Shown in pieces: positions 5,000-21,745 of a stretch of 64,000 bases of DNA. The position numbers and the translations under genes were made by a program. Under the pieces are notes generated by a model, which saw only the letters and a program-made list of their open reading frames with translations, was not told the origin of the DNA and made no database searches. Numbering within the stretch: position 1 is the first letter of the stretch; every line of letters begins with the position of its first letter. This stretch comes from a virus (taxonomy: Duplodnaviria > Heunggongvirae > Uroviricota > Caudoviricetes): IMG/VR virus record IMGVR_UViG_3300045988_157791, one strand, 5' to 3'.

Positions 5000-5140
5000 A
5001 CGCCGCCGTTCCTGAACCGGCATCGAGCCTTTTCCCGAAATCCACACAGGCAACTCGACCGTTTCCCTGAAAACCTCCAGCCGTTCCCCGAAGGCAACCC
5101 AGCCGTTTCTGTAGCGGGATGCAGCCTTTTCCCTGTATGG
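5000..5140. repeat. iteron-like array, six GCCGTT(T)CCC-GAA units at about 22-bp spacing
   Basis: Units at about 5004, 5027, 5059, 5080, 5102 and 5124; no credible ORF. Confidence 0.55.
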
Positions 5141-5289
5141 ACCGAAGGCTGACCGTAGGGGTGTTACGGGGGATAAAATCAGGAGTTGAATAAATACGAA
5201 AAAGGAGGCGACACCCCTCCTTCCCTCCCAACTTATACATACCTGTCTTGTTCGCTATACATGTTGTGTTTTCTTCGTGTTTTATCTGT

Positions 5290-6110
5290 TTCAACCTCTC
5301 TATAGGCGTTAATGCTCACTCCTTCCAGAACGTTCTATACGGCGACTATTTCTGTTGGTGAATTGGGTGTGTTGTTTTCCCTGTCGGTGTATGTGGTTTC
5401 GTTCGTTTTGCGATGGTTCTTCTATGGGGTGTTCTCGTCGTTTTGGTGATTGTTCTTCTCCGTGTATGGAGTAATGGCAGGTGGGCGATTCCTTTCGTTA
5501 TTGTGTTTGAGTTGTTTGTCTGGAGTGCGTGAAGGGCTTTTGTAGTTATTCGTGTATTGGGTAATGGCGTTTCCCGTGATTGTTATGTTTCGTGTCTTTT
5601 GGGATTGAGAGAAACCTTGCGGTTACAGGCTTCGTTGGGGTTTCAGTGATTCTGATGTTTCTTCGCTGTTTGGGTAATGGCGTGTCGTGGGTATCGCGCG
5701 TATGAATGTTTTCGGATTGCCTGTGAAAGTTAGGTTGGTTGTCCGGTAGCCTGGGAAGAAGAGGTGGGTCTTTTCGGTAGCCTGCCATAAAGAGGTTGGT
5801 TGTTTTTGGTAATGGCATATGTGTTATTTAGTTGTTTTGTTATACCTGAAAATAAGTTGTTTATATGGTTATGTAACGCAACGGGAGCGATTTTGAGCGT
5901 GTGTTTTTGTTGGTAGTGTGTTGGGTCGTCTGTGGTGAAAATTGGACGCTGTGGCGCTGTCTGCTGCGTAGAGTTACGGGTATAAGAAGTGATGTGTGAA
6001 AACGTCAATTTTTTAGACCAAATCGGGTGAAAGCGTTGACGTTTCGTTGATCTGTTATTTAGTTGTTTTCTTATTTGTATAAACAACCATAACCTATTGA
6101 TATTTAATGA
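5290..6110. repeat. strongly GT-skewed non-coding region with degenerate ~100-bp repeats (GGGTAATGGCG cores)
   Basis: Top strand depleted in A and C; GGGTAATGGCG-like cores near 5476, 5562, 5668 and 5805; track ORFs here are low-complexity. Confidence 0.5.
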
Positions 6111-18970: not shown

Positions 18971-19201
18971 GAGCAAGCTAAACGTAAAGGTGCAAACTCT
19001 CTATTTCGGTCAACGAAACACAAGGGCCATTTGGCCCTTGTCATTAACACGTTGCTTTACGGACTAGCGGATAAGCGAAGTAGATCGCCAGACCAATGAG
19101 GACGCCATCAGAAATGACAGACATCATCTTTCCCGTAAAATCCACCAACACCGCCATCACCAGAAGAGCAATGACGGTCACAAGCCGGAATCTCTCAAGC
19201 A

Positions 19202-19627
19202 TTAGAGATAAGCATCCAGTGACAACTGAAGCGCCTGTGCGATCTTTTTCAGGGCCAGCTCTTCTTGTTCGCCAATACCGTCTTGGTCGGCAATATCAAG
19301 GCACAGACACAGTACATCTACTGCATCATTAGTCCCGGCCACATCAGCCAGCTCACGTAAAGCCTGGGCATTAGCGCGGCGCGGTGAGGCTTCGTATTGA
19401 GCACGGATATTGGCGCTCATTTGGGCAATCTCACCAGCAAACGGAGAAAACGCAGGCAGAGCTGCAATTGTTTTCTCAAGAATGGAAATTTCCTTTGCGT
19501 CGCATGTGCCATCGGCATAGGAGATCATGTACGCGCCCCACACGGTGGCTTCAACCGCATCTCGGTTCTCCATTTTTTTGACCTCGATAACAGCTTTACG
19601 AGTTTTCTTTTTGAATAAACCTAACAT
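19202..19627 (-). CDS. TerB-like domain protein (141 aa)
   Basis: All-alpha protein with acidic DxxDG/EQEE pattern typical of the TerB fold (by recollection). Confidence 0.5.
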   Translation of the reverse strand: MLGLFKKKTRKAVIEVKKMENRDAVEATVWGAYMISYADGTCDAKEISILEKTIAALPAFSPFAGEIAQMSANIRAQYEASPRRANAQALRELADVAGTNDAVDVLCLCLDIADQDGIGEQEELALKKIAQALQLSLDAYL

Positions 19628-19647
19628 GTGCTTTCCTTTTGTTATTT

Positions 19648-19700
19648 GTTAAAACAAGTTGTTTTCTAGTTACATGAATTGCTTACGAAAAGACGGTCAA
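19648..19700 (-). promoter_or_regulatory. conserved promoter/leader motif (copy g)
   Basis: TTAAAACAAGTTGTTTTCTAG. Confidence 0.5.
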
Positions 19701-19720
19701 TGCATATGCACTAACAACCG

Positions 19721-19918
19721 TCAGAAATAACCAAGTACCGAACCGACTGGAAAAACAAAAATCCCAACAACACGAGCCAAGGTCATACCAGCCTGAAACT
19801 GGAGATCACCAGAGCAAACGAGTTTTACAATGTTCGATACCCAACCGGCGGCCATGAGAGCTATGAAAGCCAGAATCGCCAGCCAAGTTTTTCCAAAGTG
19901 ATTTGAAAACCAGTTCAT
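19721..19918 (-). CDS. small membrane protein, two predicted TM helices (65 aa)
   Basis: Two hydrophobic helices. Confidence 0.4.
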   Translation of the reverse strand: MNWFSNHFGKTWLAILAFIALMAAGWVSNIVKLVCSGDLQFQAGMTLARVVGIFVFPVGSVLGYF

Positions 19919-20133
19919 ACAACCGCCTTAGTCACAGCATGATCCTGAGTAACTGGATGAACTTGAGGTATCGCATCCACCGTCATCCCATCCAGAGTGA
20001 CAGGACGCTCTACTGGAGTGGTGGTAATTGTCGTCGACGGAGGTGTGGTGATGGATGAACCCGGCATCAAAAGGCTCTGGCCGGCTGGAACGGCTATCGT
20101 CGCCAGTGAAACTATAATGAGAACGTAGGCCAT
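19915..20133 (-). CDS. small exported/signal-anchored Thr/Pro-rich protein (72 aa)
   Basis: ATG with AGAGG SD; N-terminal hydrophobic segment MAYVLIIVSLATIAVPAG. Confidence 0.35.
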   Translation of the reverse strand: MAYVLIIVSLATIAVPAGQSLLMPGSSITTPPSTTITTTPVERPVTLDGMTVDAIPQVHPVTQDHAVTKAVV

Positions 20134-20422
20134 TGGTTTCAGCCTCTTTCTTTGAAAATTTTCCATTCGAACTGTCCTTGTTGTTTTTCTCCTTCACTAA
20201 AGGCCGTGTACTTTTCGCTTCGCGTGAAGAACCAGAGGTAACAATCGCCCCCACGTTCGCAACAACTGACGCTTGCTTATCTAAACGTTCATTCAGCAAC
20301 CGAACGGCAGTCTCTAGTTCATCAAGACGTGACAGAACACGACCGCTAAATAATTCGGCCAAAATTTGACGTAGTGAACGAGGACGTTTAGTTGCAGAAG
20401 TGAAATAGGTTTGACGTGCCAT
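19928..20422 (-). CDS. hypothetical protein; C-terminal half overlaps the previous gene in another frame
   Basis: N-terminal about 90 aa looks protein-like; C-terminal Ser/Cys/His-rich part may be out-of-frame read-through. Confidence 0.3.
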   Translation of the reverse strand: MARQTYFTSATKRPRSLRQILAELFSGRVLSRLDELETAVRLLNERLDKQASVVANVGAIVTSGSSREAKSTRPLVKEKNNKDSSNGKFSKKEAETNGLRSHYSFTGDDSRSSRPEPFDAGFIHHHTSVDDNYHHSSRASCHSGWDDGGCDTSSSSSYSGSCCD

Positions 20423-20567
20423 GTGGACTCCATCCAGTGTCAGAAAGAGTTGCGGCTGGCGATTGCCAGCCGCCTTTCTCGTTCCATCCTGGAACTGTGT
20501 CTTACCGACACATTGTCATCCTGACGCCGATAAGATACATGATTTAAAATGATAGGTAAACACTTAC

Positions 20568-21161
20568 TTACTGTTTGTTGTAAACAAAACCAATATCTTT
20601 CTTGTGAGGCATATCTGCTGCGGAAAAAGCTGCGATCTTCGCGAGTCGATCACATATTTCATTTTCACGATGCCCGGCGTGACCTTTAACCCACTTCCAG
20701 CGAACATTATGTCGACTTGCAGCCTCATCCAGACGCTTCCACAGATCAACATTCTTTACCGGTTTTTTGTCAGAAGTCACCCATCCATTGCGTTTCCACC
20801 ATTTCATCCACTGTGTCATGCCGTTTTTCAGATACTGGCTATCAGAGTGCAAAATAACGTTGCATGGATATTTCAAACGCTCCAGCCCGATAAGTGCCCC
20901 CATCATCTCCATGCGGTTATTGGTGGTGCTATGAAAACCATCTGAGAACTCGCGTTCCTCACCACGATACTGGAGAACTATACCGTAACCGCCCGGGCCA
21001 CCCGGATTTTTAAGGCAAGAGCCATCACTGAAGATTTTCACGGTTTTAAGCTGGGGATTGAACTCTACGACAGGCGTTGTGGAATTGGTGCGGGGAGAAT
21101 TTTTGTTTTTGGCTTTTTTGCGAGTTTTTTCTTGCGATCGGGCTGGTGTCTTCGTCGTCAT
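20568..21161 (-). CDS. ribonuclease H (RnhA-like) with basic N-terminal extension
   Basis: Aligns with E. coli RNase HI as I recall it ([37 protein letters not shown]); ATG with AGGAG SD. Confidence 0.8.
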
Positions 21162-21164
21162 ATA

Positions 21165-21745
21165 AACTCCTGAATCAAGCGCCGCGCCGATTTTTTTCCT
21201 CGCGCGTGCGCACACGCGTGCGTGTTAATAATTATTAAAATAAACAAATTACTTCCCAGAACAGGTTTTTATAAACCTGAACTGAACGAACGAAGTGAGT
21301 GAAGTTCACCTCGAACGAAGTGAGAGGTTGTCTTTTCAGGTAATACTCTCCCAGGGAGGTGAGTATAAAAATCCCTCACCAACCTGGTCGTTTCATAACC
21401 TGAAAAGTTATGGCCTAAGTCTACTGCCAGCTTAGACTTGGGAAGTTATGGATGACAGCACCCCAGAACCGAGATCTTCCCACACTTTATGAAGGGGAGT
21501 ACTGGATTCAACCTCTCGAAACACCCCAGACTCGACAATCATAAAGTGACCCTTGTCTCCGCTCACTTTGGTTCCCCCTTCCCCGACACCTAAACGGCAC
21601 CGGTTCTACGCTGGTAGTGAGCTTTTTTAAACCTGACGCCAGTGACGCTTACCCCCACCCATCAGGTCGAGTCTCCAGTCTACGACTGGAAACTATCAGA
21701 TCTTAGCACTTACAATTCACTTTATGAATAGTTTGTACTTATCTA
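21165..21745. other. 0.58-kb ORF-free region dense in hairpins and short direct repeats (candidate structured RNA or cis-acting site)
   Basis: No ORF of 60 aa or more; palindromes CACGCGTG, CAGGTTTtataAAACCTG, GTGAAGTTCAC, CTCCCAGGGAG, GGTGAG..CTCACC, CCAGTCtacGACTGG; GAACGAAGTGAG x2. Confidence 0.4.

Follow-up and report, generated by a model that had tools for sequence, protein, structure and literature searches.

A probable dual-coding gene pair conserved among SSU5/pHCM2-type phage-plasmids

Gene pairs in which one member is embedded in the other are already known in phages. Rz and Rz1 of phage lambda form an embedded two-component spanin, a class of architecture that has been described (PMC6139136). 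Other overprinted pairs, such as phiX174 D/E and the MS2 lysis gene, have been reviewed (PMC8227390, PMC3494269). We describe here a locus in a virus DNA of 64,000 nucleotides (nt) (Caudoviricetes; IMG/VR record IMGVR_UViG_3300045988_157791; 'the window', numbered from its first letter), in which the 3' half of a gene, designated A, probably doubles as most of a second gene, designated B, in the +1 frame of the same strand. The two are unrelated in sequence to the known embedded pairs and lie outside the lysis cassette. Literature searches found no published analysis of the pair.

Over 19000–20600, the window matched non-mobilizable IncFIB plasmids from Escherichia coli, about 110 kb in size, at 99.9% identity, and the phages PhiR41_1, CMS-2020a and Cyrano at 95%. 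These matches indicated that the window is an SSU5/pHCM2-type phage-plasmid. In a more sensitive search, the 751 bases that hold the small open reading frames (ORFs) matched 681 plasmid records, mostly at 67–69% nucleotide identity, from Klebsiella, Escherichia, Enterobacter, Salmonella, Citrobacter and Cronobacter. Every gene of the locus is on the minus strand, in the transcription order rnhA, A (with B embedded), C, a TerB-family gene homologous to tciA of phage P1, and a DUF3927 gene homologous to P1 tciB. The features of A, B and C were as follows.

19928..20422, minus strand: gene A, ORF of 164 amino acids (aa)
19915..20166, minus strand: gene B, ORF of 83 aa in the +1 frame within A; a second in-frame ATG at 20133 gives a 72-aa form
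19931..20166, minus strand: putative dual-coding overlap of A and B, 236 nt, comprising A codons 86–164 and B codons 1–79
20175..20179, minus strand: Shine-Dalgarno-like AAGGA of B, 8 nt before its ATG, within A codons 82–83
19915..19918, minus strand: ATGA, in which the B stop (TGA) overlaps the C start (ATG), the usual arrangement for translational coupling
19923..19930, minus strand: TAAGGCGG, the Shine-Dalgarno region of C, containing the A stop codon TAA (19930–19928)
19721..19918, minus strand: gene C, ORF of 65 aa for a two-helix membrane protein

An earlier note on this DNA, made from the letters alone, had described four ORFs, and all four were found in place (19202–19627, 19721–19918, 19928–20422, and one in a second frame ending at 19915). 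It had set the small ORFs downstream of the TerB-like gene; the order is the reverse, as on the minus strand A, B and C come before TerB. Its embedded-gene architecture was borne out, with B in the +1 frame of A and both frames conserved. So were its descriptions of B, in which a hydrophobic helix at the N-terminus leads into a Thr/Pro-rich tail, and of C as a two-helix membrane protein. Missing from it was a fifth small membrane gene, the DUF3927/TciB-like gene at 19044–19202.

The A protein has a basic N-terminus and a long predicted helix at residues 17–70 (AlphaFold2 predicted local distance difference test, pLDDT, 70–89), while residues 67–164 were modelled with pLDDT below 50. The last 95 or so residues form a tail that is predicted to lack order and contains many Ser, His, Asp, Gly and Cys residues. 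It ends in CCD in 46 of 55 distinct sequences, and the C-terminal pattern C.SGW[DN]..G.D.SSS....CD* was recognisable in remote homologues. No hydrophobic segment was found in A; the maximum Kyte-Doolittle value over 17 residues was 0.88 in the window and 0.68–1.25 in eight lineages.

B starts with a positively charged N-terminus (MENFQRKRLKP), followed by a hydrophobic helix at about residues 9–34, a variable Thr/Pro-rich stretch and the conserved motif TLDGMxVDxIP. Only conservative substitutions were seen in the hydrophobic helix among the relatives. AlphaFold2 gave a single helix plus disorder for B, as it did for A, and the B helix could either be cleaved near VPA|GQ or serve as an anchor. 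C has two hydrophobic helices and the conserved motif GDL...G.TLARVVG.F..P.G..LG.F. Its match to Pfam Phage_holin_4_1 (14.6 bits, E = 0.036) fell under the cut-off of 22.2 bits. No informative match was found for A, B or C in Pfam, NCBIfam, PHROGs or PADLOC. A and C matched phrog_10411 and phrog_6006, both of unknown function in PHROG, and none of the five proteins (A, B, C, TerB and DUF3927) had a match in PADLOC-DB 2.0 at E up to 0.1.

The layout of A and B resembled that of lambda Rz/Rz1. In both, a small Pro/Thr-rich protein, exported in lambda and predicted to be so here, sits in the 3' portion of a larger gene on the same strand and is read in the +1 frame from an internal start of its own, and the layout is family-wide. 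On the other hand, A and B had no sequence similarity to Rz and Rz1. The outer product A had no membrane anchor and the inner product B no lipoprotein signal; a lipobox Cys was present in none of 43 distinct B sequences, and 33 of the 43 had no Cys at all. The B stop codon lies 13 nt beyond that of A, so that B is almost, but not strictly, embedded. A and B also lie outside the lysis cassette of the phage family, which includes Rz and Rz1 genes of its own. In Cyrano, the annotated holin-endolysin-Rz-Rz1 genes are at 26.7–28.2 kb and A is at 79.8 kb, about 52 kb away, among DNA-metabolism genes. The resemblance to spanins raised in the earlier note extended to the +1 embedded layout and not to membership, as A had no transmembrane segment, B had no lipobox, and Rz/Rz1 genes were present elsewhere.

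A and B also shared traits with the overprinted pairs of small viruses and phages. In each case a single stretch carries two unrelated proteins in different frames, one of them disordered and of biased composition, and synonymous change is suppressed in both frames. Unlike those pairs, A/B reside in a double-stranded DNA (dsDNA) phage-plasmid of about 110 kb without obvious genome-size pressure, and their expression is putative. A and B share their phylogenetic distribution, which singles out neither frame as the older.

To follow both frames among relatives, 14 plasmid or phage loci and 71 IMG/VR loci were collected, which with the window made 86 loci. Both A (158–179 aa) and B (82–92 aa) were open in 84 of the 86 loci. 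The 84 comprised 55 distinct DNAs in about seven deep lineages, with 40–65% aa identity in A, and in all 84 the end of the A stop codon was exactly 13 nt before the end of the B stop codon. The two exceptions (L062 and L083) each carried a single-base frameshift. The third frame contained 3–7 stops within the overlap in the relatives. The B–C junction was ATGA or GTGA in every locus that had gene C, and TAAGG or TGAGG was present at the A stop and C Shine-Dalgarno region in most lineages. Checking each frame in relatives, as the earlier note had proposed, showed both to be selectively maintained, with B the more constrained; a single conserved frame, its alternative outcome, was not what we found.

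Remote relatives were few. An exhaustive profile search of 1.84 billion protein representatives returned only 20 relatives, and word-based searches with B, A and C returned close relatives only. Two remote relatives (P0050 and P0057) had the same synteny of Dam, RNase H, A, TerB and DUF3927. They lacked C, yet carried B in the +1 frame. The B starts of the remote loci were GTG in L091 and ATG in L095, both with a Shine-Dalgarno motif (AGGA in L091). Between the remotest relative and the window, the N-terminal part of A was 22% identical, the A tail 49% and B 47%. By this measure the shared stretch is the slowest-evolving part of the A/B locus. What stood out was this conservation and not the length of the ORF, as alternative-frame ORFs of such length were common in the window.

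B would start at the ATG at 20166, which lies inside A codon 86. This first ATG was present in 55 of 55 distinct sequences, each time preceded at 5–16 nt by an AGGA/GGAG/GGGA-type motif. The second ATG (20133) was replaced by ATT in one lineage (L067–L070), and had no Shine-Dalgarno motif in 32 of 52 sequences. Because the first ATG and its motif were invariably present and the second often lacked one or the other, the 83-aa form from 20166 is most likely the conserved B product. The embedded ORF of the earlier note was real, but its 72-aa reading began at 20133; this shorter form may reflect a further start used in the lineage of the window.

The nucleotide diversity of A was examined by codon position. 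Outside the overlap, the values at positions 1, 2 and 3 were 0.32, 0.23 and 0.50, which is normal for A. Inside the overlap, they became 0.355, 0.287 and 0.251 in the A phase. The periodicity there followed B, whose third position is the first position of A.

The proportion of synonymous differences (pS, Nei-Gojobori) was 0.67 in rnhA, 0.58 in the non-overlapping part of A and 0.62 in C, but 0.39 in B and 0.315 in the A overlap. The deficit of B relative to the non-overlapping part of A was at or below zero in a bootstrap fraction of at most 2e-4. The ratio of nonsynonymous to synonymous rates (dN/dS) of A rose from 0.28 in the non-overlapping part to 0.92 from the B start onward. That of C was 0.22.

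For a finer comparison, the sites in the overlap were sorted by their effect in both frames, with the synonymous sites of three control genes (rnhA, the non-overlapping part of A, and C) as the reference. Sites synonymous in A and nonsynonymous in B had a divergence (d) of 0.37, against 1.07–1.74 at the control synonymous sites, that is, 3–4 times slower. Sites synonymous in B and nonsynonymous in A had d = 0.52 against the same reference, 2–3 times slower. Sites nonsynonymous in both frames (dNN 0.24–0.30) equalled the dN of the flanks (0.29–0.37). Because these last sites matched the flanks while the synonymous sites of each frame were slowed, the region is not slow or young overall. The silent sites of each frame were specifically constrained, which we interpreted as a dual-coding signature. 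For the A frame given B, the selection ratio was 0.74, compared with 1.15–1.31 in the three control genes (bootstrap P about 0.03). This suggested a weak but real constraint on the A tail.

An OLGenie-like ratio for B (dNN/dNS, 0.59) was considered as stand-alone proof and rejected, as genes without a +1 gene already gave 0.64–0.97. The site-class comparison with flanking genes and frame-matched controls was used in its place. As a negative control, a 62-aa +1 ORF at the 3' end of rnhA (20564–20752, minus strand) gave a ratio of 1.96, with no sign of selection. This ORF, found in the window's lineage, persisted in several lineages and was broken by stops in several others.

Persistence of the frames by chance was simulated over six deep lineages. 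Under selection on B only, A stayed open with a probability of 0.13–0.36 per branch, the product being 1e-3 to 7e-5. Under selection on A only, B stayed open and kept its start with P = 1e-3 to 1e-4. In the window sequence, turning the B ATG into ACG at 20165 would be silent in A (AAT to AAC, Asn86), and four single-base changes were counted that would place a stop in the A tail but leave B unaltered.

The codon-usage scores of both frames were 0.70–0.76, compared with in-frame values of 0.78 +/- 0.05 and off-frame values of 0.63–0.66; the third frame scored lower than A and B. These scores did not separate the A tail from B. RNAalifold, with -5 kcal/mol over 298 columns and a penalty for covariation, found no conserved RNA structure in the overlap. 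On this result, folding of the RNA was rejected as the explanation of the low synonymous rates, and Rfam also gave no match.

We interpreted positions 19915–20422 (minus strand) as a conserved same-strand dual-coding gene pair of the SSU5/pHCM2 phage-plasmid family, with a probability of roughly 0.72. Both frames are kept by selection, B more strongly than the A tail, and both proteins would be made. A would be cytoplasmic, its single long helix followed by an acidic, disordered tail with many Ser, His and Cys residues. B would be read from the mRNA of A in the +1 frame, initiating at its own Shine-Dalgarno sequence and the ATG at 20166. Its 83 aa would begin with a helix that serves as signal or anchor, and its Thr/Pro-rich tail is expected in the periplasm. 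Because the B stop overlaps the C start (ATGA), B and C are probably co-made by translational coupling, and both would reside in the inner membrane. A ends 10 nt before the ATG of C, inside the C ribosome-binding site.

Several points weigh against this interpretation. The dNN/dSN of the A tail was 0.74–0.91 with a confidence interval that includes 1, and the calibrated test reached only P of about 0.03. The tail, predicted to be disordered and of low complexity, could be tolerated rather than functional. The OLGenie-like +1-frame ratio was biased below 1 in control genes and so gave no evidence for B. The simulations used a star tree and simple mutation models and are approximate, and the synonymous sites of the flanking genes were near saturation. 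PGAP and most submitters annotate only A of the pair. Recombination inside the pair also occurs, as seen in three mosaic A proteins (P0024, P0025 and P0029). These combine an N-terminal part of the pHCM2-like lineage with a tail of the window's lineage, at three crossover points. As to function, A, B and C had no Pfam, NCBIfam or PADLOC match, and expression in a lysogen was at background.

Of the alternatives, the one that survived best was that only B and the first 85 or so codons of A are functional. The A tail would then be a run-on, either translated without function or open only so that ribosomes reach the B stop and C start, for coupling or for unfolding of the mRNA, and the tail peptide would be unselected. 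The B-like periodicity of the overlap, in which A third positions were the slowest class, agrees with this, as does the interval of dNN/dSN that includes 1. So do the low pLDDT and low complexity of the tail, in which (ACC)n repeats read as Thr runs in B and His runs in A from the same nucleotides, and the position of the A stop exactly in the C ribosome-binding site. However, selection merely against stops would not slow the B-synonymous sites 2–3 times relative to flanking synonymous sites, nor was the A-frame ratio of 0.74 matched by any of the control genes. The C-terminal pattern of A was kept in remote homologues, lineages without C kept A open to the same end point, and the codon usage of the tail was coding-like. 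We consider a run-on tail unlikely.

That only A is a gene, and B a chance open frame persisting through the composition of A, we consider very improbable. All RefSeq/PGAP, SSU5 and Cyrano records examined annotate A and C but not B, alternative-frame ORFs were common in the window, and the control ORF in rnhA also persisted in several lineages. Against this stand the 3–4-fold slowing of A-synonymous sites in the overlap and the rise of A dN/dS where B begins. The start and Shine-Dalgarno-like motif of B were present in every distinct sequence, the ATGA junction joined B to C, and the hydrophobic helix was kept via conservative changes. In the remotest relative B was more conserved than the A N-terminus, and the simulated persistence under selection on A only was at most 1e-3. 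The rnhA control ORF had no such signals and was stop-broken in several lineages. B matched the PHROG family phrog_15659, likewise of unknown function and with a profile of 72 aa, so some phage submitters have called it.

Programmed ribosomal frameshifting would make the true product a fusion of the N-terminal part of A and the C-terminal part of B. Such fusions exist in the databases: four (P0028, P0030, P0031 and P0034) share the joint PEP|LMPG, and those of L062 and L083 are joined elsewhere. However, the fusions stemmed from 1-nt insertions or deletions in the DNA at three or more different positions and were rare, with 2 cases in the 86 loci, and neither a conserved slippery heptamer nor a stimulatory structure was found. 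A fusion would skip the hydrophobic helix of B, and would not need the start and Shine-Dalgarno motif of B that are conserved. Frameshifting is in our view hardly probable. The four clusters with the common joint, although of different backgrounds, carried the same T4-to-T3 change in a T4 run at about 20068–20071 (in CCTTTTGATG). The frameshifted A-B alleles, in these clusters and in L062 and L083, may be sequencing errors, products of a mutational hotspot or loss-of-function alleles.

A second spanin-like pair, or a lysis-control pair with C as holin or antiholin, would fit the +1 embedded layout, a Pro/Thr-rich B tail like the periplasmic part of o-spanins and the weak holin match of C, but is the least probable reading given an A without a transmembrane segment, a B without a lipobox, a sub-threshold holin match and a locus among DNA-metabolism genes far from the annotated lysis genes.

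The remaining features of the locus were as follows.

21215..20568, minus strand: rnhA, first gene in transcription order
20452..20473, no strand assigned: 9-bp hairpin, G+C-rich and palindromic, within the 145 nt that separate rnhA from A, with a terminator-like score on both strands
19202..19627, minus strand: TerB-family gene, P1 TciA homologue (Pfam TerB, phrog_632)
19044..19202, minus strand: gene for a DUF3927 small membrane protein, P1 TciB homologue; its start overlaps the TerB stop by one base
19020..19041, minus strand: terminator-like hairpin directly after the TciB-like gene

The TerB-like protein scored 29.3 bits against Pfam TerB (PF05099; cut-off 24.4), matched phrog_632 at E = 2.8e-62, and was 85% identical to P1 TciA over 123 aa. 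The DUF3927 protein scored 47.4 bits against PF13064 (cut-off 25) and matched phrog_1470, 'TciB-like'. In P1, tciA and tciB are arranged likewise and show the stop/start overlap of the pair in the window. The P1 genes tciABC were named by homology only and are non-essential (PMC10695390; PMC9603915). The likeness to P1 covered these two downstream genes only and not the overlapping pair A/B. No tciC equivalent was identified at the window locus, and P1 has no A/B/C homologues next to tciA.

Stand-alone two-helix proteins of Vibrio and Aeromonas phages (phrog_6006) were 43–50% identical to C over its C-terminal 40 residues. In Vibrio phage 1.177.O, the C homologue stands by itself among head and neck genes, inserted in the opposite orientation, and has a moron-like look. 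Unlike the window, these phages had no A/B pair upstream of the C homologue.

The earlier note had grouped the small genes with TerB. The A/B/C unit does not depend on it, because A, B and C were kept in pHCM2 and SSU5, where a Rha/antirepressor gene takes the place of the TciA/TciB pair. The A/B/C and TciA/TciB units are separable modules. C itself was absent from lineages L067, L091 and L095, and more widely was shortened to 35–45 aa or absent in several lineages with A and B intact, at loci L005, L048, L053 and L063 (Klebsiella), L067–L070 and L091–L096. The cassette is modular in its gene content. The A/B pair always adjoined rnhA. Because A/B/C persisted without TciA/TciB and A/B persisted where C was lost, the overlapping pair is the core unit.

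The five genes A/B-C-TciA-TciB are bracketed by the two strong hairpins, of which that at 20452–20473 may mark the upstream boundary of the cassette and that at 19020–19041 the downstream boundary. Rfam and tRNA scans of the 18.9–22.2 kb part of the window gave nothing above threshold.

Published RNA-seq data for the LF82 lysogen of Cyrano in lysogeny broth (LB) gave 5–8.3 normalised reads for A, C, TciA and TciB, compared with 117 for a neighbouring small gene, and the four were not on the authors' moron list (PMC9928086). Expression at prophage background argued against a lysogeny-expressed moron. In condition B1, all four rose together, from log2 2.3–3.3 to 4.5–6.0, and rnhA barely changed (PMC9928086 S1 Table). 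This joint rise without rnhA weakly supported a separate transcription unit starting after the hairpin.

Two other observations were made in the window. An ORF of 44 aa (MSGDKGHFMIVESGVFREVESS...) at 21432–21566, minus strand, is the equivalent of CYRAN_81 and was kept across all lineages. In LF82 lysogens it was expressed about 15-fold above its neighbours (117 versus 5–10 normalised reads; PMC9928086 S1 Table). It matched no tRNA and no Rfam family, and could either encode a small protein expressed in lysogeny or act as a non-coding RNA. The region at about 5000–6100 showed a strong skew on the plus strand (GC skew +0.22, AT skew -0.33). Its ORFs did not exceed 152 aa, tandem repeats were absent, and the stretch is probably non-coding.

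Returning to the dual-coding pair, we tentatively suggest that A/B/C, usually with the downstream TciA/TciB, form an accessory envelope-directed module for host-membrane modification or exclusion, which would serve outside stable lysogeny and not in lysis. The target of such a module might, equally tentatively, be the envelope or the ion balance while the phage develops, possibly with TciA/TciB taking part. The membrane stress or exclusion module of the earlier note may exist, but PADLOC gave no match and the genes were at background expression in a lysogen. The His/Cys/Asp-rich tail of A could bind metal. More doubtful is the proposal that A, B and C are a three-part envelope system for a new kind of host-membrane takeover or superinfection exclusion. 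In it, the overlap would tie the synthesis of A, with its metal-binding-type tail, to that of an exported B coupled to C, possibly together with TciA/TciB. If true, it would provide a testable context for the long-unexplained TciA/TciB pair.

Phage-plasmids of the SSU5/pHCM2 type are frequent in clinical E. coli, Klebsiella, Salmonella and Enterobacter. As standard annotation omits B, a conserved, predicted exported protein would be missing from the catalogues of these elements. A/B would also be a clean and deeply conserved case in which a large dsDNA phage uses as much as 236 nt of one strand for two proteins, outside the lysis cassette. The pair may serve as a test case for the detection of overlapping genes and for the study of sequence sharing when genome size is not limiting. 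It suits frame-selective genetics, because the start of B can be removed without changing A.

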